A stretch of DNA of 64,000 nucleotides from Rhizobiaceae bacterium (GCA_023953835.1 JAMLJB010000002.1:90630-154629), one strand, 5' to 3'; numbered from the stretch's first letter, positions 6,346 through 23,533 are shown. Notes: generated from the letters alone by a model not told the origin. Translations and numbers: made by a program.

Positions 6346-7347
6346 CTACAGGGCTGTGTGCAAATGGCAGCGCGTTTCCCCGCCACCCGCAACCGATGTG
6401 GGCGTCGGGTCGATCTCAGCGCAGATATCCATGACGCGCGAGCACCGCGAGCTGAACGGACATCCTTTCGGACGGTTGGACGGGTCAGGCAACTCGCCCT
6501 TGAGTCGAATGCGTCGTCGCTCCCGCTGGATGCGAGGGTTGGGAACCGGAATTGCGGAAATCAGGGCCTCAGTGTAGGGATGCGCCGGCTCTGCGTAGAC
6601 GCGCTCCGGCGGACCTTCCTCGACAACCCGGCCGAGATACATGACGGCAACCCAGTCCGCCAGATTGCGCACCACCGACAGGTCGTGACTTATGAAAACC
6701 AGTGCGGTTCCCATCTCGCCGCGCAGCTTGTCGAGCAGGAGAATGATGCCGTTCTGTGCCGAGACGTCGAGCGCGCTGATTGCTTCATCGCATACCAGGA
6801 CGTCCGGACGGACGGCGATGGCGCGCGCAATTGAAATCCGCTGCCGCTGCCCGCCGGAGAGTTCATAGGGATACCGATCCGCCAGTGCGGGGGCGAGCCC
6901 GACGGCAATCAGCAGATCGCGGACACGCGCATCGCGTGCCCGGCGATTAAGCCCTTCATGCACGATGAGCGGTTCGGCGATGCTTTCGCCGACAACCATG
7001 CTTGGATCGAGCGACGAATAGGGATCCTGGAACACCATCTGGACGTGCCGACGGTAACGACGAAATTCTCTCTGGGACATGTTGGTGATATCGACGCCCG
7101 ACAGTTCGATGGACCCCGCGGATGGCTCGACAAGCCGCATGAGCGCACGTCCGGTTGTCGTCTTGCCGGAGCCGGACTCCCCGACGATTCCCAGAACCTT
7201 GCCGGCCTCCAGCTTCAACGAGACGCCGCTGACGGCCTTCAGCGTCCGGCGCGGCTTGAAAAGGCCGGAGCGGAGTCCGAATTCGACGCTGAGGTCAGAT
7301 ACTTTCAGCACTTCCTTTGGGACGATGTTGCCGTTGATTTCCGTCAT
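6346..7347 (-). CDS. Oligo/dipeptide-type ABC ATPase (DppF/OppF)
   Basis: [17 protein letters not shown]-terminal GCPFSSRC...C...CH. Confidence 0.93.
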   Translation of the reverse strand: MTEINGNIVPKEVLKVSDLSVEFGLRSGLFKPRRTLKAVSGVSLKLEAGKVLGIVGESGSGKTTTGRALMRLVEPSAGSIELSGVDITNMSQREFRRYRRHVQMVFQDPYSSLDPSMVVGESIAEPLIVHEGLNRRARDARVRDLLIAVGLAPALADRYPYELSGGQRQRISIARAIAVRPDVLVCDEAISALDVSAQNGIILLLDKLRGEMGTALVFISHDLSVVRNLADWVAVMYLGRVVEEGPPERVYAEPAHPYTEALISAIPVPNPRIQRERRRIRLKGELPDPSNRPKGCPFSSRCSRVMDICAEIDPTPTSVAGGGETRCHLHTAL

Positions 7348-8411
7348 CTGGCCGGCCCGACAAGATTCAATTCCTCATAGCGCAGGCAGCGCGTCATCGC
7401 GCCACCCGGCAGCGCCCGGAGAGCAGGCTTTACGGTGCGGCAGGCATCCTGCACGTAAGGGCAGCGCGGATGGAAGCGACAGCCCGGCGGGATGCTGGCT
7501 GGCGTCACCGCCTCTCCGCCGATCGAAGCCAGGGCGCGGAGTCCGAAGCCGATCTGCGGCAATGAGACCATGAGGCCTTCGGCGTAGGGATGGGTCGGCG
7601 CGGAAAAAAGCCCTTCCGCGCGGTCGACCGATACAATCTGGCCACCATACATCACGACCACCTGGTCGCAGACGTCCGCGACAACGCCGAGATCATGCGT
7701 CACGAAGATTAGCCCGATCTGCAGCTCGCGCACCATCTCGCGAAGGAGATCTAGGATTTCCGCTTGAATGGTAACGTCGAGCGCCGTGGTTGGCTCGTCG
7801 GCGATAAGCACCCGCGGCTTGCAGATGATGGCCATGGCAATGAGCACGCGCTGGCACATTCCGCCGGAAAATTCGTGCGGATAGTCGTCCTTTCGACGCG
7901 CCGCATTGGGTATCCCCACACGGTCCAGCGCCTCGACGGCCAGCTTCATGGCGTCGCTGCGCGAGGCCCCGAGATGACGCCTGGCAAGTTCGGCGATCTG
8001 GTCGCCCACCGTGAAGCCGGGGTTCAAGGAGGCCATCGGCTCCTGGAAGATCATGGTCATCGATTTGCCGCGGATGTCCTCCCGGTCATGTTCGGGCATC
8101 CCGATCAACTCCCGGCCGTCCAGGCGCACGCTGCCCGACGGAATGCGGCTCGCGCGCGGCGGCAGCAATCCCATGATGCCGAGCGCCGTCACCGTCTTGC
8201 CTGATCCCGACTCGCCGACAATACCGAGCGAACTCCCTGACGGGATCGAGAAGGAAACGTCCTCGACAATGCGCGTCCAGCCCCTGCTGGTCGCAAGTTC
8301 GATGGTCAGATTGTTGACTTCCAGGGCAAGCTTGGCCACGTCCGGCCCTGCCCGCGCCTTGCTCGGGCCCGGATATGCCGCATGCCTTACAGTTTGAAGC
8401 ACCGACATCAA
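7344..8411 (-). CDS. Oligo/dipeptide-type ABC ATPase (DppD/OppD)
   Basis: [32 protein letters not shown]. Confidence 0.93.
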
Positions 8412-9376
8412 CGCCCCGTCTGTGTCTCACGGCCGAGCGAATCGCGCAGCCCGTCGCCGAGGACGTTCAAGGCAAGAACGGTAAGACCGATGCACAGTCC
8501 TGGCCAGAGGATGAAGGTGGGCGCAGCAGAAAGATAGCGCGATGCTTCGCTCAGCATGGAACCCCAGCTCGATTGCGGCGGAAGGACGCCGAGCCCGAGA
8601 TAGCTCAGGGCTGCCTCCGCAAGCATGGCCTGCGCCATGAACACGGAAAGCTGGACCAGAAGCGGTGGCAGCACGTTCGGCAGCACATGCTTCACCGCGA
8701 TCATGCTGGTGGACGTGCCGATGCTTCGCGAGACATCGATATAAGTCTCCTCCCTAACTGAAAGAACAGTACCGCGTACGAGCCTGAACAGCCTTGGTGC
8801 CTGCGTAATGCCGACCGCGATCATCGAATTCACCAGGCCCGGACCGCGAGCCGTGACGATGGCGATCGCCAGCAGCAGGGCCGGAAAACACATCAACGTG
8901 TCCGTCGCCAACAACAGCACCCGGTCGATCCATCCCCGAAGCAGCCCTGCCGCCAATCCCAGCGGTGTTCCGATCAGGACTGCCACGGATACGGCGATGC
9001 CGCCCGCCGCGAGCGAAACGTGCGTGCCGGAAATCAGGCGGCTGAGCACATCGCGGCCATATACGTCCGATCCGAGCGGGTAGCCGTCCACGCCAGGCGC
9101 ACGCAGGGCCATTGAAAGCTTCTGCGTGTTGGGGTCGACCGGATAAAGCGTGCCTCCCAGGATCGTGACCAGAATGAGAAAGAGTATGAAGCCCGCCGCG
9201 AGCATCGCCAGCCTCTGGTTGCGGAAGCGGCGTATGAAGCGCTTCAGCGGGGTCGTGCTGGGCGTGTGCGGAACGTCGTCCGCCGTCCGGCGCGCGGCTC
9301 GGTCGGCCGACCAGCGCCGGGCGGTTTCTTCAAGCGAGTGCGAAATCGCACCTTGTCCAACAAGGGTTTCGCTCAT
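8408..9376 (-). CDS. Dpp/Opp ABC permease (DppC)
   Basis: YPLGSDVYGRDVLSRL, HVLPN, EAALSYLGLG. Confidence 0.93.
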   Translation of the reverse strand: MSETLVGQGAISHSLEETARRWSADRAARRTADDVPHTPSTTPLKRFIRRFRNQRLAMLAAGFILFLILVTILGGTLYPVDPNTQKLSMALRAPGVDGYPLGSDVYGRDVLSRLISGTHVSLAAGGIAVSVAVLIGTPLGLAAGLLRGWIDRVLLLATDTLMCFPALLLAIAIVTARGPGLVNSMIAVGITQAPRLFRLVRGTVLSVREETYIDVSRSIGTSTSMIAVKHVLPNVLPPLLVQLSVFMAQAMLAEAALSYLGLGVLPPQSSWGSMLSEASRYLSAAPTFILWPGLCIGLTVLALNVLGDGLRDSLGRETQTGR

Positions 9377-10317
9377 CAGATCCGAACCTTTGGGTTGAAA
9401 TAGCGATAGGACAGGTCCACCGCGAGATTCACGAACAGCACCATGATCGCAGTGACCAGTGCGACGCCCTGCACCATCGGGAGGTCCCGCTTGAGCACGG
9501 AATCGACGGCGAGGCTGCCCAGGCCGGGCAGCGCAAAGGCGCGTTCGAGCACCACAACGCCGCCGAGCAGGGCGGTGATGCGTATCCCGAGCATCGTCAC
9601 GAAAGCCGTCGCTGCATTTTTCAGCGCATGCTTGCCGATGATGACGGGCACGCGCAGCCCCTTGGCGCGCGCCGTGCGTATGTAATTCTCGTCAAGCACG
9701 CTCGCCATCGACCCACGCAGTTGCCGTGTGAGTTCGCCGGATTTGGATATTGCCAGCGCCAGGGCCGGCAGAAAGAGGTGCCAGATCCAGAGCAGCGGGC
9801 TTTGCTCGAAGCGGACATATTGCGCGACTGGAAACCAGCGCAGCGTCAGCGCAAAGAATGCCACCAGCAACAGGCCTATCCAGAAATCCGGCATCGCCAT
9901 ACCGATACTCGAGACGGCGGTAATCGACCGGTCGATCCAGGTTCCCCGATGGATCGAGGCGAGAATGCCGGCGGGTATGGCTATCAGCAGGGCAAGGATT
10001 ACCGTCACCAGGGCAAGCGACATCGTCACCGGCAGCCTTTGCATGATCTCGGTGGTCACAGGGATGCCGCTGAACAGCGAGGTGCCGAAATCACCCTGGA
10101 GGACGTTGCCGGCCCACCTCAGATATTGGACGTAGACCGGCTGGTCGAGTCCGAGCTTGACTCGCGTCGCCTCGACCTGCTCCGCCGTGGCGGTTTCCCC
10201 GGCGATCGTTATCGCCGGGTCACCCGGAACGAGCAGGACAAGACTGTATACCACGATGCTGACGAGAACGATCGTCAGCATCATGCGTGGTATCCATCGA
10301 ATCAGTTCCGCAATCAT
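9376..10317 (-). CDS. Dpp/Opp ABC permease (DppB)
   Basis: PGDPA, LGLDQP..VQY, YIRTARAKGL, FALPGLG. Confidence 0.93.
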   Translation of the reverse strand: MIAELIRWIPRMMLTIVLVSIVVYSLVLLVPGDPAITIAGETATAEQVEATRVKLGLDQPVYVQYLRWAGNVLQGDFGTSLFSGIPVTTEIMQRLPVTMSLALVTVILALLIAIPAGILASIHRGTWIDRSITAVSSIGMAMPDFWIGLLLVAFFALTLRWFPVAQYVRFEQSPLLWIWHLFLPALALAISKSGELTRQLRGSMASVLDENYIRTARAKGLRVPVIIGKHALKNAATAFVTMLGIRITALLGGVVVLERAFALPGLGSLAVDSVLKRDLPMVQGVALVTAIMVLFVNLAVDLSYRYFNPKVRI

Positions 10318-10334
10318 CTGAACTCTGCTTGCTG

Positions 10335-11855
10335 CTAGTCTTGCGTAGCGTAGACATTGCGGAAGTCGAGTGCACGATCCGACCAGGTGGGCGAAGGCAT
10401 ACCCGCGATCCCCTTACGGAACGCAATGATCGAGGCCGGCAACGCAATCGGAATGTTGAGCGCCTGCTCGTAAATCTCCGCATTGAGCGCCTGGATCAGC
10501 TCGATCCGCTTGGCCGGATCGGTCGTGGCCAGCGCCTCATCCAGGATACTCAGGAATTTGGGCGTCGTCAGCTTGCCCGGATTCTGGATCGTATCGCCCG
10601 TCGTCAACTGCAACGTCGCGAGCGGATCGAGGCGACCACCCCATGTGGCGATCTGGGCGTCCGTCTCCTTGCCGTAATAGGAGCTGCCGGACTCTGCCGA
10701 AGGCTGGACGCGGAAATCGATCTTGATGCCGATGTCGGCGAGCATGGACTGAACGGCGACATAGGCTCCGACATCCGTGGTCGTCGCCCCCGAGAGGAAC
10801 GAGAAACCGTCCGGATATCCCGCCTCGGCGAGCAGCTTGCGCGCCTGCTCGGGGTCGAACTTGAACTCGGGAAGACTGGTATTGTAGTACGGCGACCCCT
10901 GGGGGAAATACTGGGACGCGGGGGTCGCATATCCTGCATACAGGCTATCGGTGATCGCCTTGCGGTCGATCGCAAGATTGACCGCGTCGCGCACCCGCTT
11001 GTCGGCGAAGGGCTTGGCTTTCTGCGGGTTGATCCACAGGCGATATTGGGAAGTCGTGGGATGCGCATCGACCACCAACCCCATATCTTCTGCCATCTTC
11101 GCGTCATTGCCGCTGATATAGGCCGCATCGGCCGCGCCACTCTGCAAGCTGTTGAACGCCGTGGTCAGGTCCGGCGTGATGTTGATGCGCAGGTTGTTGA
11201 CGTGGATGTTCGCTGCGTCCCAATACTCGTCCCATTTCTTGTACGAGATGTATTGCCCCGAGACATATTCGTCGAGCTTGAACGGACCGGCTCCGATGGG
11301 CTTCGTGCTTGCATCGCCGAAGGAAGCGGGGCTGAGCATCATCCCTGCCAGATCGGCAAACACGAAGGGAAGCGTGCTGTCCTTGTCTTTCAACACCAGC
11401 GTGATCGTATGGTCGTCGACCACCTTGATCTCCTGCACCGAGCGCAGAAGTACCGCCTGCGTTCCGCCCTCCACCGTCATCGTGCGGTTGATATTCGCCT
11501 TCACCGACTCGGCATCGAAAGGCGCTTCGTCCTGATATTTCACACCCTGCCGCAAATGCATGGTGAACTGCAGGCCGTCATCGCTGTAATCCCACGATTC
11601 CGCCAGTCCCGGATGTACGGCGCCATCATTGTCGGCCGTAAACAGGCGATCGAAGATGGGATATAATGCCGTGTTCTGCACGGAGCTCGCGTAGGTCTGC
11701 GGGTCGAAGTGCTGCGGTTGGCGGTTGTAGTTGAATGTGAAGGTTTCGAGATCGCCCCGTTTTGCGTCTTGTGCAAAGCCATGGCTGGGCACCAGCGCGG
11801 CAGCGAGGAGTATGGCGGCGGCGCTGACGCCTCGCCTCATGCAAGCGGTATTCAT
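10335..11855 (-). CDS. Family 5 (Dpp/Opp) periplasmic substrate-binding protein
   Basis: Signal peptide; PGLAESW, LRQGVKYQDEAPFDAESVK, PIGAGPF, DKRVRDAVNLAIDR. Confidence 0.92.
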   Translation of the reverse strand: MNTACMRRGVSAAAILLAAALVPSHGFAQDAKRGDLETFTFNYNRQPQHFDPQTYASSVQNTALYPIFDRLFTADNDGAVHPGLAESWDYSDDGLQFTMHLRQGVKYQDEAPFDAESVKANINRTMTVEGGTQAVLLRSVQEIKVVDDHTITLVLKDKDSTLPFVFADLAGMMLSPASFGDASTKPIGAGPFKLDEYVSGQYISYKKWDEYWDAANIHVNNLRINITPDLTTAFNSLQSGAADAAYISGNDAKMAEDMGLVVDAHPTTSQYRLWINPQKAKPFADKRVRDAVNLAIDRKAITDSLYAGYATPASQYFPQGSPYYNTSLPEFKFDPEQARKLLAEAGYPDGFSFLSGATTTDVGAYVAVQSMLADIGIKIDFRVQPSAESGSSYYGKETDAQIATWGGRLDPLATLQLTTGDTIQNPGKLTTPKFLSILDEALATTDPAKRIELIQALNAEIYEQALNIPIALPASIIAFRKGIAGMPSPTWSDRALDFRNVYATQD

Positions 11856-11912
11856 GACGTGATTTTCCTCCCTTTGTATTTCCAGCTTTGTCGCGGGAAA
11901 GTGAACTCCGGC

Positions 11913-13361
11913 TCAGCGGCCTTCCCGGATGACCTCCTCAAGACGCCGGGCAGAGTCGAGAGATTCAAGCTCCGCGACCAGGCGATGAAGTCCATGCGCA
12001 ACCCGTTCGCCGATGACGGGAACCGCGAGACGCAAATATTTGGTGGTGAGATCGTCCCAGGTGCTGACGCGTTTCGAAGGATGCGGGGATGCCTGCTTGA
12101 GCACCCGCCCGTCCCTTGTGGTCACCTGGACGTAGCTCGGACCATTGCGCGTCGATGGATGCGCGGCATCGACGGTGACCTTTTTCATCCATTCGACCGC
12201 TTCCGGCCGGGTTACCGTTTCGTCCGTGAACCCTGCCTCGGTCGTATCCCAGCCGAGCATGGCGGCAACGACGGCGAAGCGGACGCTGAACTTGCCTTCA
12301 AGACCGGTCTTCGGTTCCGCGATATTCGAATGGTCGAGGGAAAAGGGCGGGCACCAGGCGTGTATCTGGACGATGTCGGCCGCGGTAAGGCCGGTCGATG
12401 CAAGAAGGCTCTTCATCGCTTCGATCGGCGCGTGCGTGCCCAGGCAGGACGCATGATGCTTGAAGTATATGGCCTCGACGAGGTACGGCGCGCCGAGCGG
12501 CCGATGCGGATCGTCGAACTGCGTTTCGGGTGAATCCACCCATTCCTGCCCATAGTGCCGGACGAGCGCGCGCTGCTGGTCCGCGTTGGACTGGGTCCAG
12601 GCGAAGCCGTATTCGGCCTCCAGCACATCCGGGGCGCCGGTGAACCCTTCGGCCGCAAGCAGAGCCGCGCGCGTGCCGTTCGCCGCGGCGTTGCCGGCAT
12701 GTACAGGCTTGCACATGCTTCCAAAGGAAGCGCGCAGGCCGGCAGCGGCCGTGCCGGCGATTCCCAGGGCGTTCTGCGAGCACTCCTGATCGAGCCCGAG
12801 TATCCGCGCAGCAGCGCCGACCGCGCCGAATGTGCCAACCGTTGCCGTCGTATGCCAGCCCGCGTCGTAGTGGGCATAGCCCACGATGCCCTCGACGCGG
12901 CTTTCCACTTCCTGGCCCGCGACAATTCCCTCGATCAGCCGCGGCCCCGAAACGCCTTCAGCCTGCGCGACTGCGAGCGCGGCCGGCATGATGGTCGCGG
13001 AGGGGTGGATTGCCCGGCAGCCGTCATCGAAGTCCAGAGCGTGGCCGGCCACACCGTTTGCAAAAGAAGCCGCGCCAGGTCCGACGCACCTGAAATCATC
13101 GCCGAACATAAGTGAATGTCCCGCACCGGCTTCCCGTGCCGCTACGCGGCGCGCGATGGAAGCGGCATTCGCGGCGGACCCGGCAAGCGCCACCCCGAGC
13201 CAATCGAGCAGGCAGCCTTTCACGCCATCGACGACGTGGACCGGCAAGTCTTCGATCCGAACGGATCGGCCGATCCTTGCGACATGGCGCGTCAATCCCG
13301 TCAGTTCGCTCCGGCCTGAGAAAGACTCGCCTACAGGGGCGGCGGCTGCCGATTGGGTCAC
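11913..13361 (-). CDS. MmgE/PrpD family protein
   Basis: ANGVAGHALDFDD, HPSA, GWHTTATVG, KPVHAG, GLEGKFS; GTG start with GAGG RBS. Confidence 0.9.
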   Translation of the reverse strand: MTQSAAAAPVGESFSGRSELTGLTRHVARIGRSVRIEDLPVHVVDGVKGCLLDWLGVALAGSAANAASIARRVAAREAGAGHSLMFGDDFRCVGPGAASFANGVAGHALDFDDGCRAIHPSATIMPAALAVAQAEGVSGPRLIEGIVAGQEVESRVEGIVGYAHYDAGWHTTATVGTFGAVGAAARILGLDQECSQNALGIAGTAAAGLRASFGSMCKPVHAGNAAANGTRAALLAAEGFTGAPDVLEAEYGFAWTQSNADQQRALVRHYGQEWVDSPETQFDDPHRPLGAPYLVEAIYFKHHASCLGTHAPIEAMKSLLASTGLTAADIVQIHAWCPPFSLDHSNIAEPKTGLEGKFSVRFAVVAAMLGWDTTEAGFTDETVTRPEAVEWMKKVTVDAAHPSTRNGPSYVQVTTRDGRVLKQASPHPSKRVSTWDDLTTKYLRLAVPVIGERVAHGLHRLVAELESLDSARRLEEVIREGR

Positions 13362-13377
13362 CTGCTACCTCACTTGA

Positions 13378-13883
<506 letters not shown>

Positions 13884-13942
13884 TCATGCGAGATATGGAG
13901 AATGCACCGGACAAGGCCCGGCATGACCCGACCGCAAGACCA

Positions 13943-14707
13943 TTACTCCCAAAGGCCCTTCGGCATCGGGAGACCTTTGTAGGCATTTGGGTCGACGGGC
14001 ATTGCGAGCTTGATGTCGAACTCATCCAGCAGCGCCTGGAGCTGCCGGATATGCTGGGCGGAATGCCATGTCTGCCGCTCCAGCAGCTCATGCGCCGGCC
14101 GAACGCCGTAGAATGTCTTGACCGTCCATTTGCAGGACTTGTCGTCAAGGCCGTCCCAGAACGCGTGCAGCCGGGCGATGACGGAATCCGCGTACCGAAT
14201 AATGTCTTGCGACGAGACGACGTTGTCCGACACGCGAAGGTTTGCCACCCTGCCCCAATCCTCAACCCCTTCCTGAACCGTCTGCAGGAACGCATCTGGG
14301 ATCTGATAGATGTGGTACGAAAGCCCGCGTATGGTTCGCTCGCGCCCCGGCACCGGCTGATAGGCGAGCTTGTCCGCCGGAATTGCTTCGATCAGTCCGC
14401 GCGCGACATCGAGAAAATAGAACCACCGCTCCATGAGTTTCTGGGCGGAGAGCGATTGATCGAGATCCGGCTTTTTTCCGACAAACTCGGATACCTGGCT
14501 GAGCGACTGCCCGAACACGAAGGATTTGCCCCTGGAAAGCACGGGAAGGGACCGCGCGCCGAGAGCCGCCAGGTCGGTTCGTCCCTGCGCATCAGTCAAG
14601 ACATTGACGGATTCGAACGGGACCTCCAGCTCGGTCAGGAATTCCTTTAGGCGGACGCATGCCGAACAACCCGGCTGCCAGAAAACTCTGAAGGGCTCAT
14701 GTTGCAC
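13943..14707 (-). CDS. Glutaredoxin-like (CSAC) domain fused to a DinB/YfiT-like helical domain
   Basis: RVFWQPGCSACVRLKEFL...RSLPVL Grx fold; C-terminal LSYH and WHSAQH His triad. Confidence 0.8.
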   Translation of the reverse strand: MQHEPFRVFWQPGCSACVRLKEFLTELEVPFESVNVLTDAQGRTDLAALGARSLPVLSRGKSFVFGQSLSQVSEFVGKKPDLDQSLSAQKLMERWFYFLDVARGLIEAIPADKLAYQPVPGRERTIRGLSYHIYQIPDAFLQTVQEGVEDWGRVANLRVSDNVVSSQDIIRYADSVIARLHAFWDGLDDKSCKWTVKTFYGVRPAHELLERQTWHSAQHIRQLQALLDEFDIKLAMPVDPNAYKGLPMPKGLWE

Positions 14708-14840
14708 TACAAATTCCTCCCTGCTTCACGCCTGCGGCGCAGACGCGGTCGGCGCGCCCGATCGGACCCGTTCGCAATGGCAAGCGAATTTCCCGGATGA
14801 GAAATGTTGCCAGGGACTCGACACTCGGCGCTTCATTTCA

Positions 14841-14967
14841 TACTACGAACTACGTATGACGATTCAGCATGCTACGGCTCGCCCGGGTTGTCAACAAGAG
14901 GCAAACGCAACCCGACCGGCATTGACAACGGTTCTTACTCCCGCTCATATGTCGTATTACGTCATAC
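14841..14967. promoter_or_regulatory. Divergent promoter region with two heptamer-repeat operators
   Basis: Minus strand: TTGACA (14894-14889) then CGTCATA-CGTAGTT-CGTAGTA; plus strand: TTGACA (14922-14927) then CGTATTA-CGTCATA (14953-14966) before gntR. Confidence 0.7.
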
Positions 14968-14986
14968 CATTGATGGCGAGGTTCTA

Positions 14987-15670
14987 ATGACTTCCAAGTT
15001 AAATTTGCAGATTCATCGGCCGAGCGACACGATCCCGGGCCAAGTCGTCAGGCTCCTCAGCCGCGCCATAGTGGACGGGCAGTTCGCCCCGGGCCGTCGG
15101 CTTACCGAACCGGAACTCATCGAACTGACGGGCGTCAGTCGTACATCAATTCGCGAGGCGGTGCGTCACCTTCAGCAAATGGGACTTGTTGAGCCTTCCC
15201 CGAGCCGGGGCGTCCAGGTCGCCACGATGACGCGGCAGAACATCGAATACATCTACGAGGTCCGTGAAGCGCTTGAGCCGATGGCCGCCGGCCTTTTCGT
15301 GCTGCGCGCGACGGATTCCGAGGTCGAGGAGCTTGCAAGCTATGTCGAGCCTCTCGGCGTTCCGGCCGAGGTGCGGCTGCGCTCCATCTATCGCTTCGAC
15401 GAGCTTTTGGTGCGAGGCGCCCGCAACCCAATCCTGCAGGATATCCTCACGCCCCTGCACGCCCGCATTCACGCGCTGCGAAGGCTGTCGACCTCGATAC
15501 CCAACCGCGAGGACGCTTCCGTGCGGGAGTACCTGGAACTGGTGAAGGCAATCCAGCAACGGGATCGAGAGGCAGCGGTGAGAGTGTCCACCCGGCATGT
15601 GGAAGCGGCAAGGGCAGCGGCATTTCACGCGCTCGACCTGCTCGACAGGCCCGAGGAGCAGGGAAAGTGA
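14987..15670 (+). CDS. GntR family (FCD domain) transcriptional regulator
   Basis: GQFAPGRRLTEPELIELTGVSRTSIREAVRHL wHTH, YEVREALE. Confidence 0.92.
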   Translation: MTSKLNLQIHRPSDTIPGQVVRLLSRAIVDGQFAPGRRLTEPELIELTGVSRTSIREAVRHLQQMGLVEPSPSRGVQVATMTRQNIEYIYEVREALEPMAAGLFVLRATDSEVEELASYVEPLGVPAEVRLRSIYRFDELLVRGARNPILQDILTPLHARIHALRRLSTSIPNREDASVREYLELVKAIQQRDREAAVRVSTRHVEAARAAAFHALDLLDRPEEQGK

Positions 15671-16821
15671 CAGCCCGCTCATTCGATCAGGACATCGCAA
15701 TCGTCGGTGTCGGGCACTCGGACTTTGGCGCCCTGTACCGGACCCGGGATCGCTTCAGGGATGCATTCGGACTGGGCGCCATCGCCCTGCGCGAAGCGAT
15801 CGACGACGCCGGAATAGACAAGAGCGAGATCGATGCGTTGATCTGCTCCCGCGTCGACTATGCGCGCATGGCCAATGTCGCGGGCCTGCACAATGTGCAT
15901 TTCATCCACGACCTTGAAGGCTCGGGCCGCATGAGCGGCATCGCGCTGCAGGAAGCAATCGGGCTGATACGGGCTGGGCTCGCGACGACCGTTGCCTGTG
16001 TCTACGGCAACAACGGCCGCTCGGTGAATATGAAATACGGCGGCGAAGGAGCGGGCGAAGGCGGCGGGTCCACGGCGGGCTACGATGCGATGTATGGCAT
16101 GACCTCGCCCGGCGCTGCCGTCGCGACCATGTACCAGCGCTATCGGGCTCTCTACAATGTGCCGGAGGACGGGCTTGCCCCCCTGGCTATCAACAACCGC
16201 CGCAACGCATCCAAGAACCCGGTTGCGGTTTTCCGCGACGAACTCACGCTGGATGAATATCTCTCCTCGCGCTTCATCGCCGAGCCGCTGCGGCTGCTCG
16301 ACTACTGTCTCATCAACGACGGGGGTGTGGCGTTCCTCGTAACGACGATGGACCGCGCGCGGAACCTGCGAAAGCCGCCGGTCAAAGTCGCGGCGACTGC
16401 GGGCATGTCGGAACTCACCAATTACTATCCGAGCGAGGACTTCTTCTACAGCGTTTGCGCGAATGTCTCCGATCGGCTCTACGCCCAGTGCGGCATCGCG
16501 CAGAAGGACATGGACCTCCTTCAGATCTACGACAATTTTCTGCCGACGATATTGTTCAGCCTCGAGGGTTTCGGCCATGCGGATCGCGGCACGGCGTGGG
16601 AATGGATACGCGGCGGCCGCATCGCCCTTGAAGGAGAACAGCCCCTTAACACCGCCGGCGGCCACACATCCGAAAGCTACATGCAGGGGTGGGCGCACCA
16701 TGTCGAGGCTGTGCGCCAGATCCGCGGGGAATGCGGCGAGCGTCAGGTAGCCGGCTGCGAGGTCGTCCAATACGTCTGCGCTTCGCCCATCGTTACCGCA
16801 CATGTTCTGACTGCAGCCTGA
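15667..16821 (+). CDS. Thiolase-fold protein of Ltp2/SCP-x type (no N-terminal catalytic Cys), probable acyl-CoA aldolase
   Basis: LLDYCLINDGG, QIYDNF, NTAGGHTSESYMQG, EAVRQIRG; followed by a DUF35 gene. Confidence 0.85.
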   Translation: MTARSFDQDIAIVGVGHSDFGALYRTRDRFRDAFGLGAIALREAIDDAGIDKSEIDALICSRVDYARMANVAGLHNVHFIHDLEGSGRMSGIALQEAIGLIRAGLATTVACVYGNNGRSVNMKYGGEGAGEGGGSTAGYDAMYGMTSPGAAVATMYQRYRALYNVPEDGLAPLAINNRRNASKNPVAVFRDELTLDEYLSSRFIAEPLRLLDYCLINDGGVAFLVTTMDRARNLRKPPVKVAATAGMSELTNYYPSEDFFYSVCANVSDRLYAQCGIAQKDMDLLQIYDNFLPTILFSLEGFGHADRGTAWEWIRGGRIALEGEQPLNTAGGHTSESYMQGWAHHVEAVRQIRGECGERQVAGCEVVQYVCASPIVTAHVLTAA

Positions 16822-16834
16822 GAGGACTGAAAAG

Positions 16835-17245
16835 TTGACGGACGCATATGCTCGGCTGTTGCCGCCCATCACGGATGCCAATCGCGGGTTTTGGGAAGGC
16901 TGTGCCAAGGGTGAGTTGCGGCTTCAATGCTGTGGCAAATGCAAACATCTGCGCTATCCAGATAGCCCCGTTTGTCCGCGCTGCCTGGCCGACGAAAGCA
17001 CCTGGCAGGTGGTAAGCGGCGACGCCACGCTTTGGTCGTGGGTCGTCATGCATCAGCGCTATTTCGAGGCGTTCGAGAAAAAGCTTCCCTATCTCGTCGC
17101 GTTCGTGAAGCTCGAAGAGGGCGTGTTCATGACAAGCACGCTGGTCGATCCGCCCGACGCGCTCAAGATCGATTTGCCGTTGCGGCTGGAGTTCATCCAA
17201 ACCCCCGCAGAGCGTGTCATTCCGGCGTTCCGGGTCGTTCAATGA
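16835..17245 (+). CDS. DUF35 Zn-ribbon/OB-fold protein
   Basis: FWEGCAKGELRLQCCGKC...YPDSPVCPRC, LPYLVAFVKLEEG. Confidence 0.92.
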   Translation: MTDAYARLLPPITDANRGFWEGCAKGELRLQCCGKCKHLRYPDSPVCPRCLADESTWQVVSGDATLWSWVVMHQRYFEAFEKKLPYLVAFVKLEEGVFMTSTLVDPPDALKIDLPLRLEFIQTPAERVIPAFRVVQ

Positions 17246-18042
17246 ATACGCCTTCGAACGAACGCGTGCTTCTCGAAAACCTCGGCGAAGACGTTGCGCG
17301 CATCACCTTGAACCGTCCGGATAAGCGCAATGCGATGGATCTGGCAGCGCGCCGGGCGCTCATCGGGGCGCTTGACGACTGCCGCGGCCGCGCAAAGGCC
17401 ATCATACTCACCGGTTCGGGACCCGCCTTTTGCGCGGGCGTAGACTTGAAGGAGGTCGCCGCGGCGCGTGGCGCCGATCCGCTCGATGCCGAAGCTCGCC
17501 GCGCGATGTGGATCAAGGTCCAGGCCGAAATCCGGGAACATCCGGCAATCGTCATTGCTGCGGTCAACGGCTTCGCATTGGGTGGAGGCGCCACCCTCAT
17601 CAACTCATCGGACCTGGCGATTGCCGCGGAAGAGGCGGCAATCGGCATGCCGGAGATAGGGTTCGGTCTCTATCCGGGCCTGGCCGGACCGTCGACGCAA
17701 TTGCGGCTGCCCCCCAAGCGGGCCGCCTGGATGGTGCTGACAGGCAATCGGATCTCGGGCCGCACCGCTGAAGAATGGGGCCTTGTGAACCGCTGCGTGC
17801 CTCTTTCCGAACTTGCGCAGGAAGCGGAGGCACTGGCCCGTCATATCGCCGGCTTCGATGCGGTAACGCTCGAATGGTGCAAGAAGGCCCTGCAGCAGGT
17901 CCCCGCAATCATCTCGGATTGGAACACCGCGCTTGAATACGGGGAAAGCATAGGAAATCAGATCCGTGCCCGCACCGGCAGCCTGGATGCGGGATTGGGT
18001 GCGTTCGTAGCCGGGAAGCGCAATCCGGGCCAAGGCGTGTGA
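17242..18042 (+). CDS. Crotonase (enoyl-CoA hydratase/isomerase) family protein
   Basis: ITLNRPDKRNAM, FCAGVDL, AAVNGFALGGG, MPEI. Confidence 0.92.
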   Translation: MNTPSNERVLLENLGEDVARITLNRPDKRNAMDLAARRALIGALDDCRGRAKAIILTGSGPAFCAGVDLKEVAAARGADPLDAEARRAMWIKVQAEIREHPAIVIAAVNGFALGGGATLINSSDLAIAAEEAAIGMPEIGFGLYPGLAGPSTQLRLPPKRAAWMVLTGNRISGRTAEEWGLVNRCVPLSELAQEAEALARHIAGFDAVTLEWCKKALQQVPAIISDWNTALEYGESIGNQIRARTGSLDAGLGAFVAGKRNPGQGV

Positions 18043-20324
18043 TGTCCGACAACAGCGGGACTACAGCGCATAGTCCGCCCAGGTCGAAGGCGTTGCGCAT
18101 CATCGAGCTCGGAAGCGGGCTGTCGGGGCGCATTTGCGGAAGGCTCTTTGCCGGACTCGGCGAAGACGTGGTGACGCTCCGCCTGCCGGATGCGGATAAC
18201 CTGCAACAATCTTCGGACCACGATCGTGGATCGTCATTCTTGGGCCAGGGCAAGCGTCGCCCGGAGCCGGATACCGCCGAGTTCGGAATCATGGCGGCCG
18301 CGGCGCTGAATGACGCCGACGTCGCAATCGTCGATTCCGCCGCGCTGAAGGCAGGTTTCGATACCGCCGAAATGCGTCGGCGCTGGCCGGACCTTGTGAT
18401 CGTCTGTTTCACGACGCTTGGCCTCACCGAACCGGCGGACCTGCCCGAGGACAGTCTCCTGGCGGAGGCGTTCGGGGGATTGGCCACGATGATAGGGGAA
18501 CCAGGTCGCAAGCCGCTTCAGCTTGGCAACGAACAAGCCTCGTTTGCGGCAAGCTTTGTAGGATTTCTCGGCGTCGTCCTCGCGCTCCGGCGCCGGAACA
18601 TGGGACATGGCGGAGACGTCGTTGACGTGGCTCTGGCCGACGTGATGGCCTACATTGATTGGAAAAGCGACATTCTGGTCAACCAGACCGGCCAGGCTCC
18701 GTCGCGCACGGGCACCTCGGGCGGTGCCTGGCGAATAGTCGATGCGGTCGATGGCAAGGTCGGCATTATTTTCCAGCCCGACCAGTGGGACCTTCTCGTG
18801 CGGCTGGTCGGCGACCCGCGCCTTGCCGATCCTGATCTCAAGGATGCTCGAATTCGGCAGGGCAAGGCGGAGAGCTGGTGGCCGGTCATCAGGGAATGGG
18901 CCGCAGCCAGGCCGAAGCTTGATATTTATCACCAAGCCCAGGCCCTCGGGTTGCCGTTCGGGTTCGAAGCCAGCGTTGCCGATCTCGTGCAATCGCCGCA
19001 GTACCGCGCGCGGGGCTTTGTGCAGCCAGGCGCATCTTCCGCGACCGGACCACTTTTCAGGTCCGATCGCCTGACATGGGACAATCTTCATCCCGCCGCC
19101 CCGGAAACCGGTTCGGATGCAGCCCACGCGATCGATCAGGCCAGTTCGGATGCGCCGCTGGCGGGGCTGCGCGTGCTCGACCTTGGCACCATTACCGCAG
19201 GCGCAGCCACGGGCCGCCTACTCGCGGATTATGGTGCGTCGGTCATAAAGGTGGAGTCGGGCTCCCGACCCGATCCTTTCCGCCAATGGTCCGGTGGGGG
19301 GCCTTTCGAGCCTGGCGAGTCGCCGATGTTCGATTCGAACAATGCGGGGAAACTGGGAATCGACCTTGATCTGACCGACGCCGGGGATCGAAACCACCTC
19401 TATGCCCTGGTGCGCGAAGCGCATGTGGTCATTGAGAATTTCCGGGTGGGCGTAACCGAAAAGCTCGGCATTGACCAGGCGACCTTGCGCCACCTGAACC
19501 CGCAACTGATCTACCTGTCCTTGTCGAGCCAGGGCCAGTCGGGACCGGAAGCTCGATATCGATCGTACGGATCGACGCTGGACCTGCTGTCCGGCCTGGC
19601 CTCCGTCACCGGCTATTCGGGCGGCGGACCGATCTGGTCGTCGGTGGAAGTGAATTATCCAGACCAGCTCGTATCCCTCTTCGGCGCGGGGCTCGTGGCC
19701 TATTGCGCATTGCGGGATCGCCACGGCCTGATGCTGGATGTATCGCAGCGCGAAGTTGTGAGCTGGACGCTGAGCAGCCTGCTCGAAGAGTACAAGGCGA
19801 CCGGCCATGTCGCCGCGCCGCGCGGCAACGAGCGAAACGACTGGCTCCCGCATGACGTGTATCCATGCAAGGGAGACGACAGGTGGATCGCAATCTGCTG
19901 TGCCACGGACAAGGAGCGGGCAGCCGTCGCCCGGATTCTGGATCTTCCTGAGGCGGCCGCCCGGCACGGCTGGTGGGCCTCCAACAGAGTTCTTGGGGAC
20001 ACCAGGCTCTCTGATTGGACCCGTGTGCGCGAGCGCGACGACATTGTCCGGCAGCTCGCGACGGCGGGTGTTGCCTGCGCCGCGGTTCATGACGCGAAGG
20101 ACCGTGTCAACAGCCCGCATTTCTTGAAGCGGCGTGTTTTTCTTTCGGGACCCCCACGCCGAAAGGGCTTTCCTTTCGTCATGCAGGGCTACCAGCCACC
20201 CGTGCCCGCCTCGGCGCCGGCGGTGGGCGAACACAATGAATTGTTTGCACACGGGCTTTGGCCCGAGCAGTCGAGGCCCGGGGGGATATCGGGCCGGGAA
20301 TCGATCATGGGAGCTGAGGTATGA
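18042..20324 (+). CDS. Tandem (two-domain) CaiB/BaiF class III CoA-transferase
   Basis: Two repeats: LRIIELGSG and LAGLRVLDLGTITAG...LADYGASVIKVE; NAGKLGIDLDL, VIENFRVG, YPDQ. Confidence 0.9.
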   Translation: MSDNSGTTAHSPPRSKALRIIELGSGLSGRICGRLFAGLGEDVVTLRLPDADNLQQSSDHDRGSSFLGQGKRRPEPDTAEFGIMAAAALNDADVAIVDSAALKAGFDTAEMRRRWPDLVIVCFTTLGLTEPADLPEDSLLAEAFGGLATMIGEPGRKPLQLGNEQASFAASFVGFLGVVLALRRRNMGHGGDVVDVALADVMAYIDWKSDILVNQTGQAPSRTGTSGGAWRIVDAVDGKVGIIFQPDQWDLLVRLVGDPRLADPDLKDARIRQGKAESWWPVIREWAAARPKLDIYHQAQALGLPFGFEASVADLVQSPQYRARGFVQPGASSATGPLFRSDRLTWDNLHPAAPETGSDAAHAIDQASSDAPLAGLRVLDLGTITAGAATGRLLADYGASVIKVESGSRPDPFRQWSGGGPFEPGESPMFDSNNAGKLGIDLDLTDAGDRNHLYALVREAHVVIENFRVGVTEKLGIDQATLRHLNPQLIYLSLSSQGQSGPEARYRSYGSTLDLLSGLASVTGYSGGGPIWSSVEVNYPDQLVSLFGAGLVAYCALRDRHGLMLDVSQREVVSWTLSSLLEEYKATGHVAAPRGNERNDWLPHDVYPCKGDDRWIAICCATDKERAAVARILDLPEAAARHGWWASNRVLGDTRLSDWTRVRERDDIVRQLATAGVACAAVHDAKDRVNSPHFLKRRVFLSGPPRRKGFPFVMQGYQPPVPASAPAVGEHNELFAHGLWPEQSRPGGISGRESIMGAEV

Positions 20325-21172
20325 CCGACTACAGAGTTGATATGGGCATCGCAAACCGAGTGGCGTTGGTGACCGGTGCAGCGCGCAATATCGGCCGCAG
20401 CACCGCCATCGCGCTCGCCAGGGCCGGCGTCCGCGTCGCGGTCGCTGCGCGGACGGATTCGAAGGAACTCAACGACACGGTCAGGGAATGTGCGCAATCC
20501 ACGCAGGCGATCCCGATCGTCGTGGATCTCGCCGACCCGGATTCCATCGGCGCTGCCGTGGGCCGCGTCGAGCGGGAGCTCGGGCCGGTGGACATTCTGG
20601 TCAACAATGCCGCGATCCGCCCAAGGGTGCCCATCGCGAAAATCGATCTTGCCGAATGGGCCAATGTCCTCGACACCAATCTTCGCGCGCCGTTCCTGCT
20701 CTGCCAAAGCGTGGTCGAGGGCATGATGGATCGCCGCTGGGGACGAATCGTCAATGTCTCGGGGATCGACGCCATTGCCGGCAGCGTGGACCGTGTTCAT
20801 GTGACGACGTCGAAAGGCGGTTTGCTGGGGCTCACCGCGGCTCTTGCGCCGCAAGTCGCCAAATATGGCGTAACGGTCAACACGGTTATCCCCGGCGCCA
20901 TCGACACTGTCAGACATACCCCCGAATGGTATCCCGACACGAAGACATTTCGCGCCGCTTTCACCGACCGCTCCCCGATGGCGCGCTTTGGCATGCCTGA
21001 CGAAATCGCCAATGCAGTTCTGTTCCTAAGTTCCGTCCTTTCCTCCTATCTTACCGGTCAATCGATCGTCGTCGCGGGAGGTTTTCCGATTGGTCGCCGA
21101 AAAGAATCGGAAGCTGAGCCCGAGCTCGATTGGGTAGGCAAGTTCCGCCCCGATCAGGTGGAAGCCCAGTGA
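20321..21172 (+). CDS. SDR family oxidoreductase, atypical (YxxxK Tyr replaced)
   Basis: VALVTGAARNIG, LVNNAA, HVTTSKGG. Confidence 0.88.
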   Translation: MTDYRVDMGIANRVALVTGAARNIGRSTAIALARAGVRVAVAARTDSKELNDTVRECAQSTQAIPIVVDLADPDSIGAAVGRVERELGPVDILVNNAAIRPRVPIAKIDLAEWANVLDTNLRAPFLLCQSVVEGMMDRRWGRIVNVSGIDAIAGSVDRVHVTTSKGGLLGLTAALAPQVAKYGVTVNTVIPGAIDTVRHTPEWYPDTKTFRAAFTDRSPMARFGMPDEIANAVLFLSSVLSSYLTGQSIVVAGGFPIGRRKESEAEPELDWVGKFRPDQVEAQ

Positions 21173-22890
21173 CCCATATCTACAACAATCCCGACAACTT
21201 CGCCGCGGAGGTACTCAATGGCTACGCATCGGCCTATGCGCGCTATGTATCGGCCGTGCCGGCGGCGGGGGTCGTCAACGCCCGCGCCCAACGTGGTCTG
21301 ACCCGGGTCGTCGTGGGCGGCGGCGGCGGGCACTTCCCATGGAGCGCGGGATTCGTCGGGCCGGGCATGGCCGACGGAGCAGTGATGGGCAATGTGTTCA
21401 CCTCGCCGTCCGCGGAACAGATTTACCAGGTGATACGCGCCTTACCCGATGCCGCGTCCGTGCTCTTCTGTTACGGCAATTACGCAGGCGACGTGCTTCA
21501 TTTCAACATGGCGCAGGAACGACTTCGCTCCGAAGGCGTAGACTGCCGCAGCGTGCAGGTAACTGACGACGTGGCGTCGGCTGCGTCGGGAAGCGAAGGC
21601 CAGCGGCGCGGGATTGCCGGAAGCATGATCGTCTACAAGATCGCGGGCGCCGCGGCTGCGGCCGGCGGCGATATCGGCAATGTCGAGCGTGCTGCCGGAC
21701 GGGCCAACGAACGTACGCGGACGTTTGGCGTGGCGTTTTCCGCATGCACCTTCCCCGGTCGCGAAAAGCCGCATTTCGATGTCGCGCCGGGAACATTCGA
21801 GCTCGGGCTCGGCATCCATGGCGAACCGGGAGTTCGCAGCGCGGCTCGAATGAGCGCGGCCGAGCTGGCGGGGACACTCGTCGGGGAACTCGTGAAAGAA
21901 CGACCATCGGATGCATCGGGCCGCGCCGCCATTCTGCTGAACGGATTGGGAGCGACGAGCCAGGACGAACTGCTCGTGCTGTGGAGCGGCATAGCACCCT
22001 TGCTGAAGGACGCCGGCATCGACCCCGTCCTTCCGGAAGTGGGTGAATATGTAACCAGCCTCGACATGGCCGGCTGTTCGCTCAGCCTTTGCTGGCTCGA
22101 TGACGAACTCGAAGATCTATGGCTCGCCCCCGTCGATACCCCGGCGTTCCGGCGTGGTTCTCCTGTCGTCGCATCCGCGGAAACTGACGCTTCCTCTGCT
22201 GGCAAGCCGGTGGCAAATGCGCCTCGGGCAACGAAGGGTCCCTCGGTTTCATCGAGCGACGACGCCGGTTCCGATGCGGTTCGCGCTTCGCTCGCGGCCA
22301 TGCTCGATGCCGTGACAAAGGCAGAAGCCATGCTTGGCGAAATGGACTCCGTTGCAGGCGACGGCGATCATGGGGTCGGCATGACGCGCGGCCTGCGCGC
22401 TGCGGTCGATGCTGCCCGAACATCCGGCCGCACGCCGGAACTCCTTCGCGCGGCAGGTGCCGCATGGTCCGACAGGGGCGCCGGTACGAGCGGAGCGCTC
22501 TGGGGCCTGCTGCTCAGTTCCATGGGAGACGCGCTCGATGCAAAGACCGTGATCGACGGCGCGGCTCTTTCAAAGGCAATCGCCCACGCTGCCAGACAGG
22601 TCCAGCAAGTCGGCAAAGCTGAAATCGGCGACAAGACCATGGTGGATGCATTGGCACCGTTCGTGGAATCGCTTCTCGACGCCATGGGAAAAGGAACTCC
22701 GCTCGGCGCGGCATGGCCACAGGCAAGCGCGCTCGCTACGGAAAGGGCCCAAGCGACTGCGAGCTTGCGACCCCGGCTCGGCCGGGCCCGCCCGCTCGCG
22801 GAAAGAAGCGTCGGTTCACCCGATCCGGGGGCCGTCTCGATGGCGCTTTGCCTGAGCGCAGTCGCACCGGTTTTGAAGGATTGCAATTAA
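21169..22890 (+). CDS. Fused DhaK-DhaL dihydroxyacetone/erythrulose-type kinase
   Basis: GGGGGH, YGNYAGD, DDVAS, RRGIAG, GLGIHGEPG, GDGDHG, GDKTMVDA, PDPGA; GTG start at 21169. Confidence 0.9.
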   Translation: MTHIYNNPDNFAAEVLNGYASAYARYVSAVPAAGVVNARAQRGLTRVVVGGGGGHFPWSAGFVGPGMADGAVMGNVFTSPSAEQIYQVIRALPDAASVLFCYGNYAGDVLHFNMAQERLRSEGVDCRSVQVTDDVASAASGSEGQRRGIAGSMIVYKIAGAAAAAGGDIGNVERAAGRANERTRTFGVAFSACTFPGREKPHFDVAPGTFELGLGIHGEPGVRSAARMSAAELAGTLVGELVKERPSDASGRAAILLNGLGATSQDELLVLWSGIAPLLKDAGIDPVLPEVGEYVTSLDMAGCSLSLCWLDDELEDLWLAPVDTPAFRRGSPVVASAETDASSAGKPVANAPRATKGPSVSSSDDAGSDAVRASLAAMLDAVTKAEAMLGEMDSVAGDGDHGVGMTRGLRAAVDAARTSGRTPELLRAAGAAWSDRGAGTSGALWGLLLSSMGDALDAKTVIDGAALSKAIAHAARQVQQVGKAEIGDKTMVDALAPFVESLLDAMGKGTPLGAAWPQASALATERAQATASLRPRLGRARPLAERSVGSPDPGAVSMALCLSAVAPVLKDCN

Positions 22891-23503: not shown

Positions 23504-23533
23504 AGACCTATCCAACGCACGGTCCGGCAATAG

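Follow-up and report, generated by a model that had tools for sequence, protein, structure and literature searches.

A Conserved Gene Cassette Around a Predicted Ltp2-Type Retro-aldolase, With a Lineage-Specific Kinase Tail, in a Rhizobiaceae Bacterium

In the literature covered here, the characterised aldolases built on a thiolase fold are Ltp2, Sal and their mycobacterial homologues, all of which act on steroid side chains. In the Ltp2/Sal-type enzymes the site of the thiolase nucleophile carries a residue other than cysteine; in TcLtp2, mutagenesis has defined Tyr294 as the catalytic base and Tyr344 as the acid, and replacement of the oxyanion-hole His296 costs only ~14-fold in efficiency (PMC12329534). 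Ltp2, the aldolase of the steroid C3 side chain (Thermomonospora curvata / Mycobacterium; PDB 6ok1), is paired with the DUF35 protein ChsH2, and Sal, the aldolase of the bile-acid C5 side chain in Comamonas testosteroni (9myr), depends on the DUF35 protein Shy and yields an aldehyde plus acetyl-CoA (PMC12329534). Here, we examine a locus at positions 6,346 to 22,890 of a 64,000-nucleotide stretch of DNA from a Rhizobiaceae bacterium (GCA_023953835.1 JAMLJB010000002.1:90630-154629; "the window" means this whole stretch), in which a thiolase-fold protein without the catalytic cysteines, called Thl in what follows, is encoded next to a DUF35 gene and is predicted from its sequence to be a retro-aldolase acting on 3-hydroxyacyl-CoA.

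Both thiolase cysteines are missing from Thl: Arg88 (in GSGRMSG) occupies the site of the nucleophile, and YDNF replaces the thiolase HDCF. Its top sequence match in the PDB is Ltp2 (6ok1; 33% identity, E 3e-46). The alignment sets IYDNF against LYDHF and SESYMQG against GEAYIHG, and so puts Y288 in the place of the TcLtp2 base Tyr294 and Y338 in that of the acid Tyr344. The residues R88, Y288, N290 and Y338 are invariant (22/22) in an alignment (A1) of family members that are 58-74% identical to the window protein, and the three motifs that an earlier note on this DNA had quoted (LEGSGRMSGIAL, IYDNF and SESYMQG) are all present in the translation and invariant or nearly so in the same 22 members. 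The SCP-x-type thiolase fold is apparent from Pfam, from an AlphaFold (AF2) model with a pLDDT of 83.7 and from a Foldseek search with this model, where two chains of 6ok1 came first (TM 0.84) and Sal-Shy (9myr) third; true thiolases, close behind these, PhlC and TbSLP were also strong matches. All of the NCBIfam thiolase models stayed under their cut-offs, and we rejected an ordinary thiolase because an arginine stands at the nucleophile site and YDNF provides no acid/base cysteine. The residues, the best sequence match and the best fold match thus agree with the earlier proposal that Thl is not a canonical thiolase and has kept two tyrosines. Sal relies on a Tyr302/Cys304 pair (YDCY) and has a glutamine at the site of the second tyrosine, whereas Thl has YDNF, with no cysteine, together with the second tyrosine; by sequence, therefore, it is a non-thiolase protein of the Ltp2-like rather than the Sal-like kind.

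The likeness to the Ltp2 system is considerable: an SCP-x-type thiolase fold without the nucleophilic cysteine, a tyrosine base in YDxF, a second tyrosine as acid and a neighbouring gene for a DUF35 zinc-ribbon/OB protein. With Sal, the Cys-less nucleophile site and the DUF35 partner are held in common. The differences from Ltp2 are, however, equally plain. In the Ltp2 system the DUF35 domain forms the C-terminus of a MaoC hydratase and the substrate is activated by a ligase, whereas in the window DUF35 stands alone, the hydratase has a crotonase fold and activation falls to a CoA-transferase; His296 has become an asparagine and an invariant arginine sits at the former cysteine site. No MaoC, acyl-CoA dehydrogenase or steroid genes were found in the window locus or the related loci examined, and the presence instead of a Dpp-type importer suggests a small polar acid as the substrate. 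The clade keeps the Ltp2 catalytic pair in operons unrelated to steroids, in the company of a crotonase and a fused CoA-transferase. Identifying its substrate would show what a large family does whose members are currently labelled "acetyl-CoA acetyltransferase" or "lipid-transfer protein," and might provide a new biocatalyst for cleaving or forming C-C bonds.

Two further Cys-less thiolase-fold proteins are encoded in the same genome. The first (G000:C2:463471-464574; 45% identical to Thl) has GRMSG, IYDNF and SESYMQG, with genes for DUF35 and an aldehyde dehydrogenase in its vicinity; the second (G000:C1:1261796-1262872; 33% identical) has IYDAF and SEGYLQG.

A pattern scan of 185,579 species-representative genomes revealed at least 512 loci with a relative of the aldolase, mostly in Actinomycetota and Chloroflexota. 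The best 80 of these were analysed with 10-kb flanks on each side and checked for the full gene set; 63 loci were long, among them a close set of 37 (at least 15 kb, Thl identity at least 55%), mostly from Actinomycetota, and about 100 related loci, metagenome contigs included, were compared in all. In the 37 close loci DUF35 is always present (37), nearly always accompanied by a tandem CoA-transferase (34), a crotonase (33) and a GntR regulator (30; counted when a homologue at least 35% identical lay within 10 kb of Thl). A conserved five-gene cassette hence comprises GntR, the aldolase, DUF35, a crotonase with a one-Glu site and a tandem family III CoA-transferase. Four loci (L083, L085, L091 and L107) have the same gene order, with GntR immediately upstream of Thl in L091 and L085. 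The accessory genes of the close set are far more varied: aldehyde dehydrogenase 27, family-5 periplasmic binding protein 18, proteins resembling short-chain dehydrogenases/reductases (SDRs) 8, P450 7 and PrpD-like 5. The aldehyde dehydrogenases were scored within 10 kb, and in the two loci read gene by gene (L002 and L091) this gene directly follows the CoA-transferase. Metagenome contigs agree with this division; among the varied accessories there are luciferase-like monooxygenases, a Rieske/LigXa oxygenase, a lactonase, P450 plus ferredoxin plus PrpF, Zn-ADH and differing transporters. For the combination in the window we found no matching described pathway, as the earlier note had suggested: full-text literature searches gave only steroid, bile-acid, ibuprofen or unrelated work, and one paper on Ambrox was set aside since its retro-aldol step differs.

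In the window the cassette forms the main part of the second of two divergent, tightly coupled operons that have a repeated candidate operator in common. The features are as follows.

6346..7347, minus strand: ABC ATPase of a Dpp/Opp-type importer, DppF-like (Pfam ABC_tran and oligo_HPY; 4-nt overlap with its neighbour)
7344..8411, minus strand: ABC ATPase of a Dpp/Opp-type importer, DppD-like (Pfam ABC_tran and oligo_HPY)
8408..9376, minus strand: permease, DppC-like (Pfam OppC_N and BPD_transp_1)
9376..10317, minus strand: permease, DppB-like (open reading frame and translation; 59% identity to the L085 permease)
10335..11855, minus strand: family-5 periplasmic binding protein with signal peptide (Pfam SBP_bac_5, 282 bits)
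11913..13361, minus strand: MmgE/PrpD-family protein, not the PrpD equivalog (Pfam N- and C-domains)
13370..13436, minus strand: promoter/operator copy 5' of the PrpD-like gene (direct repeats D1 and D4)
13943..14707, minus strand: glutaredoxin-DinB_2 fusion, Grx-DinB (Pfam)
14833..14898, minus strand: second promoter/operator copy, 5' of Grx-DinB (direct repeats D1, 90%, and D4, 100%)
14921..14967, plus strand: TTGACA promoter element and related operator half-sites (GTATTACGTCATAC) 5' of gntR (sequence reading)
14987..15670, plus strand: GntR/FCD regulator, first gene of the plus-strand operon (Pfam GntR and FCD)
15667..16821, plus strand: Thl, Cys-less thiolase-fold protein, predicted Ltp2-type retro-aldolase (Pfam Thiolase_N and Thiolase_C_1)
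16835..17245, plus strand: stand-alone DUF35 protein (Pfam zf-ChsH2 and OB_ChsH2_C)
17242..18042, plus strand: crotonase-fold enzyme (Pfam ECH_1)
18039..20324, plus strand: tandem family III CoA-transferase, CoAT2, 761 aa in two repeats (Pfam CoA_transf_3, two stretches)
20321..21172, plus strand: classical SDR of the FabG/PhaB/BbsD type (Pfam and NCBIfam)
21169..22890, plus strand: fused Dak1+Dak2 (DhaK-DhaL) kinase, ATP-type (NCBIfam PRK14479)

The 14 genes of this list were confirmed at the positions first proposed for them, by open-reading-frame map and translation, and their families by Pfam and NCBIfam. The start of gntR is the ATG at 14987, preceded by GGCGAGG, and not the beginning of the open reading frame at 14804; that of the kinase, from alignment with homologues, is the GTG at 21169. 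Overlapping start and stop codons, which the earlier note saw at most of the genes, do occur at nearly every junction: the plus-strand genes overlap by 4 nt throughout, except that Thl and DUF35 are separated by 13 nt, and the importer genes of the minus strand overlap by 4, 4 and 1 nt. The family assignments required some correction, as the CoA-transferase has its catalytic aspartate in the C-terminal repeat only, the crotonase is without its first glutamate and the SDR is of the FabG/PhaB type.

The partner most closely tied to Thl is DUF35, a zinc ribbon (CxxC...CxxC, both pairs being present in the translation) followed by an OB fold, whose gene adjoins that of Thl in 76 of the 80 loci; a complex between the two is predicted from sequence. 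The crotonase carries GGGATL where hydratases have GGGxEL and retains the second glutamate (MPE), and in all 45 linked orthologues (45/45) the site of the first glutamate is a threonine and MPE is kept. It is thus not a two-Glu enoyl-CoA hydratase; its one-Glu site follows the pattern of hydroxycinnamoyl-CoA hydratase-lyase (HCHL), the top NCBIfam match, although at 162.6 bits it falls below the equivalog cut-off of 276. It is predicted to be an enoyl-CoA hydratase, and possibly an isomerase. The C-terminal repeat of CoAT2 has BbsF (9fn0_B) as its top PDB match and contains NYPDQ, invariant in 60/60 sequences, in which the aspartate is what we take to be the catalytic residue, the one that forms the anhydride intermediate in this enzyme family, judging from the motif position of Asp169 in Frc. 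No aspartate aligns in the N-terminal half (Gly/Asn or Ala, depending on the alignment), and only the C-terminal repeat looks catalytic; the fused chain would accordingly imitate a heterodimer with one active site. At locus L040 the halves are two separate genes.

This set of genes invites comparison with the Bbs module of benzylsuccinate degradation, where a family III CoA-transferase, a crotonase, an SDR and a thiolase-fold protein with DUF35 are likewise joined in one operon. Were the locus an ordinary beta-oxidation module of that sort, with the SDR as 3-hydroxyacyl-CoA dehydrogenase followed by thiolase plus DUF35, its genes would mirror BbsEF, BbsH, BbsCD and BbsAB; BbsF, BbsD and BbsB do appear among the PDB matches and BbsA and BbsB give weak matches in NCBIfam. 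But BbsB is a true thiolase with a catalytic cysteine and its pathway needs an acyl-CoA dehydrogenase, neither of which the window locus has. The nucleophilic cysteine is Arg88 and that of HDCF is Asn290 in every member of the clade, an SDR occurs in only 8 of the 37 close loci, the BbsB model scores 96 bits against a cut-off of 750, and the CoA-transferase, unlike BbsEF, is one fused polypeptide in which a single repeat looks active. We regard this explanation as scarcely credible.

A different objection is that Thl and DUF35 are not an aldolase at all and instead decarboxylate a malonyl-type CoA ester (a reaction weakly reported for TbSLP), transfer acyl groups in the manner of PhlABC or have a structural role. 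The strong structural matches to true thiolases, PhlC and TbSLP would fit such functions; neither Ltp2 nor Sal has an equivalent of the invariant Arg88, the Ltp2 His296 is replaced by asparagine, and the linked crotonase, with its HCHL-like site, could itself both hydrate and cleave. Nonetheless, the tyrosine pair that Ltp2 uses in catalysis is kept without exception throughout the clade, PhlC-type enzymes use a cysteine (PDB entry 9skm is titled "C88S") that Thl does not have, and the frequent downstream aldehyde dehydrogenase fits an aldehyde product, so we judge a non-aldolase function to be quite improbable.

Retro-aldol cleavage by Thl would place the cassette beside the HCHL route (Fcs/Ech/Vdh) and the mesaconate/itaconate routes, made up of a CoA-transferase, a hydratase and a malyl-/citramalyl-CoA lyase, all of which proceed by the same logic: a 2-enoic acid is converted to its CoA ester, hydrated and split by retro-aldol cleavage, and the carbonyl fragment is disposed of. 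The one-Glu site of HCHL recurs in the window crotonase. In those routes, however, cleavage is performed by HCHL itself or by a CitE/HpcH-type lyase, whereas here a thiolase-fold aldolase would do so; members of the HCHL and mesaconate/itaconate pathways have no close homologues at the locus, and what is shared is no more than the broad family III and crotonase folds.

Transport and preparation of the substrate would be the task of the minus-strand operon. The periplasmic binding protein lies below all NCBIfam equivalog cut-offs; orthologues are found in L091 (57%) and L085 (52%), and its PDB matches (GsiB/YliB, DppA, AgaA and NikA) were rejected as a clue to the ligand, being too distant to name one. 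The PrpD-like protein belongs to the MmgE/PrpD superfamily and is no PrpD equivalog (38 bits against a cut-off of 950); its top PDB match is iminodisuccinate epimerase (2hp0/2hp3, E 6e-50), and it is predicted to be an isomerase, dehydratase or decarboxylase of the free acid. Members of the PrpD-like and PrpF families isomerise, dehydrate or decarboxylate unsaturated branched polycarboxylates, which suggests that these proteins prepare a 2-enoate for the cassette. PrpD-like genes occur in 9 of the 80 loci, five of these in the close set (5/37), and their link with the cassette is recurrent, as is evident from a 1239-aa protein (P0299; L092 1368-5087 / L093 5244-8963) that fuses a tandem CoA-transferase to an MmgE/PrpD domain and from the tandem PrpD-like pairs that follow the cassette in L024 and L040. 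Downstream of the P0299 fusion come another PrpD-like gene and a gene for a small ferredoxin.

PrpF stands where PrpD would in L023 and L094 (Cupriavidus numazuensis and a Tardiphaga genome), whose cassettes are accompanied by P450s, SDRs, an aldehyde dehydrogenase, a 2Fe-2S ferredoxin and a ferredoxin reductase. This company points to a hydrophobic, possibly terpenoid-derived, substrate for this variant.

We infer every chemical step and every substrate of the following scheme from what was observed of gene content, coupling, residue conservation, fold matches and co-conservation. The Dpp-type ABC system would import a carboxylic acid that is probably unsaturated, beta-substituted or both and may be a di- or tricarboxylate, and the PrpD-like enzyme would isomerise, dehydrate or decarboxylate it to a 2-enoate. 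The C-terminal repeat of CoAT2 would form the CoA thioester, the crotonase would hydrate it at C3, and the aldolase-DUF35 pair would split the resulting 3-hydroxyacyl-CoA by acid/base catalysis, with Tyr288 as the base and Tyr338 as the acid, into a short acyl-CoA and an aldehyde or ketone. In the related loci this carbonyl product would usually be an aldehyde, since an aldehyde dehydrogenase, which would oxidise the fragment, is frequent there and directly follows the CoA-transferase where the genes were read. In the window lineage a FabG-like SDR may reduce or oxidise the fragment in place of the aldehyde dehydrogenase, and DhaK-DhaL would phosphorylate an alpha-hydroxy-carbonyl of the dihydroxyacetone, glyceraldehyde or erythrulose type for entry into central metabolism. 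With the SDR and kinase standing in the dehydrogenase's place, translationally coupled to the CoA-transferase through ATGA and GTGA overlaps, processing of the carbonyl fragment is the simplest role to propose for them. We give about an even chance to this overall view of a GntR/FCD-controlled catabolic locus around a portable five-gene cassette whose carbonyl product is processed by SDR and kinase. The CoA-dependent retro-aldol route of the earlier note survives in the predicted identity of the aldolase and in having no match among described pathways found; the kinase as its conserved end does not.

That kinase was expected to be conserved with the aldolase pair, a prediction that the neighbourhood search ran against. 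Of the 63 long Thl-anchored loci, among them the 37 close ones, none has a DhaKL kinase up to 10 kb from the aldolase pair. Conversely, the cassette is absent from 16 kinase-anchored loci (L086-L090 and L095-L105), 10 of which were long enough to be read, the other six, at <5 kb, being uninformative. We therefore rejected the kinase as a conserved partner of the aldolase; the SDR plus DhaKL pair after the CoA-transferase is a lineage-specific tail, seen only in the window locus. A domain-permuted Dak protein at L031 (3111-4859, minus strand; 582 aa, Dak2 N-terminal and Dak1 C-terminal) has its own GntR/FCD regulator and is divergent from the cassette copy, and we took it as weak evidence at most for a link between kinase and cassette, given the separate regulator and the opposite strand.

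The kinase itself is a fused Dak1+Dak2 protein (PRK14479, 672 bits against a cut-off of 492) which, like the other ATP-dependent DhaK-DhaL kinases (e.g., the Citrobacter freundii dihydroxyacetone kinase, 1un8), has the catalytic His, the Asp and the DGDHG cluster. The motifs GIHGEPG, NYAGD and GDGDHG are all kept; the roles given here to the substrate-binding GIHxEPG histidine, the NYxGD aspartate and the DhaL DGDxG aspartate cluster are those of the Escherichia coli and C. freundii DhaK. It departs from the known enzymes in having GHFPW where canonical DhaK has GHEPA and in being encoded by the last gene of an acyl-CoA operon; none of the 10 readable kinase loci (16 fetched) shows such a setting. 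The GG[SG]GHFPW form, as against the canonical GGGSGHEPA, is also found in homologues P0122-P0127. Judged by sequence, this variant leaves the specificity open among dihydroxyacetone, glyceraldehyde and erythrulose; homologues are named D-erythrulose 4-kinase or dihydroxyacetone kinase in their source annotations, and Huang et al. in 2015 reportedly described actinobacterial D-/L-erythrulose kinases. The closest homologue (73%) lies on L086, a 3.6-kb metagenome contig, where an SDR (83%) precedes it with the same 4-nt overlap; the contig ends inside this SDR, cutting off the upstream genes, and the downstream neighbour is a GntR without a match to that of the window. Homologues at 59-62% sit beside amidohydrolase and alpha/beta-hydrolase genes or beside an ABC importer, an SDR and a flavin monooxygenase, and more distant ones beside Zn-ADH or TIM plus isomerase genes; the usual neighbour is a dehydrogenase in a small catabolic operon. 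As the chromosome encodes a DhaK-DhaL paralogue (G000:C1:562674-564344; 49% identical), the plasmid kinase is an extra copy. The best PDB relatives of the window SDR are FabG, PhaB/acetoacetyl-CoA reductase and BbsD, which lends no support to the idea that it is a polyol dehydrogenase.

Several observations weigh against the scheme as a whole. No substrate, product or activity is on record for any member of the aldolase clade. The oxyanion-hole histidine of Ltp2 corresponds to Asn290, invariant in the clade, and the crotonase, which has only the second of the hydratase glutamates, may be an isomerase or may itself act as hydratase and lyase. The SDR resembles 3-oxoacyl-thioester reductases, not polyol dehydrogenases; its substrate may thus be a CoA ester, and the kinase, already missing from all 63 long loci, would then have no clear feeder enzyme. 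Furthermore, transposase and resolvase fragments abut the 3' end of the operon, so its tail may be truncated or rearranged. A further difficulty is L091, the closest full relative (Thl 75%, GntR 73%, crotonase 67%, DUF35 63%, PrpD 61%, binding protein 57%, CoAT2 55%), which shares the importer and PrpD-like gene with the window locus. The gene that stands there in place of the SDR and DhaKL encodes a CoA-acylating methylmalonate/malonate-semialdehyde dehydrogenase (MMSDH; 634 bits, cut-off 448). It suggests a beta-carboxy aldehyde, a kind of compound that Dak does not use, and a carbonyl of the malonate-semialdehyde type is likewise no obvious Dak substrate.

In L091 (12196-17397) the MMSDH is followed by a glyoxylate-assimilation cluster of glxR, gcl (953 bits against 791) and hyi, which may be a clue to a glyoxylate or semialdehyde product there. 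Glyoxylate was not adopted as the general product, however, because gcl-hyi-glxR follows the cassette in L091 alone and Gcl was found in 0/80 loci.

The differing tails (aldehyde dehydrogenase, MMSDH, or SDR plus kinase) offer a practical handle for narrowing down the product. The kinase tail, although a local curiosity, would show the rerouting of a carbonyl product into glycolysis. A bolder reading, which we consider unlikely, treats the cassette as a general equivalent, built on a thiolase fold, of the malyl-/citramalyl-CoA lyase routes; in its plasmid version the kinase would trap the alpha-hydroxy-carbonyl, giving an acyl-CoA and a sugar phosphate without an aldehyde dehydrogenase. On this reading the substrates of the cassette would be beta-substituted or hydroxylated (di)carboxylic acids beyond the reach of ordinary beta-oxidation, across at least 512 bacterial species; the fragment released would be of the dihydroxyacetone, glyceraldehyde, erythrulose or hydroxypyruvate type, and the invariant Arg88 would bind a carboxylate or hydroxyl of the substrate.

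The regulator of the locus has a winged-helix GntR domain (50 bits) and an FCD effector domain (83.5 bits) by Pfam and belongs to the FadR subfamily. A 30-mer repeat (90% identical, with an exact 19-mer core) stands 5' of both the PrpD-like gene (13370) and Grx-DinB (14833), as does an exact 12-mer with TTGACA on the minus strand (13425 and 14887); the copies of D1 and D4 are 1463 and 1462 nt apart. A related GTATTACGTCATAC lies between a TTGACA and the start of gntR. The repeat proposed earlier as a shared operator is thus real, and one candidate motif before all three transcription units makes it plausible that a single regulator governs all three.

Grx-DinB had been listed among the members of the system; as a conserved partner it found no backing, being absent from 80/80 related loci (0/37 in the close set), and it is a lineage-specific accessory gene. 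The duplicated promoter/operator brackets Grx-DinB and a thioredoxin-reductase-like fragment, an arrangement which suggests that this region is a later insertion that copied the control region. The open reading frame in question (13380-13763, minus strand) resembles in its first ~35 residues the FAD-binding N-terminus of pyridine-nucleotide-disulfide oxidoreductases, the remainder being unmatched, and is probably a gene fragment left downstream of Grx-DinB.

The host genome has four replicons, and the locus sits on a secondary one of 470 kb. None of 40 genomes from the same genus, family or order encodes the aldolase (0/40), which led us to reject vertical inheritance; the nearest relatives of Thl are actinobacterial or metagenomic, and positions 13300-22890 have no megablast match among the plasmids of PLSDB. 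Starting 26 nt past the kinase stop codon, an ISL3-type transposase fragment (22.8 bits) and a C-terminal resolvase fragment occupy 22916-23805 (minus strand). In view of the missing relatives, the foreign affinities, these insertion-sequence fragments and the duplicated control region, the locus looks horizontally acquired and locally remodelled.

Such remodelling is central to the possibility, which we hold to be real though on the unlikely side, that the operon is a mosaic: the importer, PrpD-like enzyme and cassette would form one pathway whose aldehyde is handled elsewhere, and the SDR-DhaKL pair an independent module for a polyol or for a ketose such as dihydroxyacetone or erythrulose, metabolically unconnected with the aldolase and joined to the operon end by plasmid rearrangement. 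The kinase's absence from the long Thl-anchored loci, the pairing with an SDR on L086 beside an unlike GntR and the varied dehydrogenase-plus-kinase modules of its homologues all speak for this, as do the mobile-element fragments immediately past its stop codon, the absence of the locus from the 40 related genomes and the many aldehyde dehydrogenases encoded elsewhere in the genome. Yet the exact 4-nt overlaps at CoAT2/SDR and SDR/DhaKL indicate the same unit of transcription and translation, and there is no GC break at the locus. The L086 contig, moreover, is cut inside the SDR, so that a cassette could lie upstream, and a second Dak copy beside the chromosomal paralogue suggests a dedicated role.

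Past the mobile-element scar, at 24443-27228 (minus strand), are genes for an MTHFR-like protein (a weak match), a formyl-tetrahydrofolate deformylase-like protein and an intradiol dioxygenase. These point to O-demethylation and ring cleavage of aromatics, a neighbourhood that has no connection with the locus.

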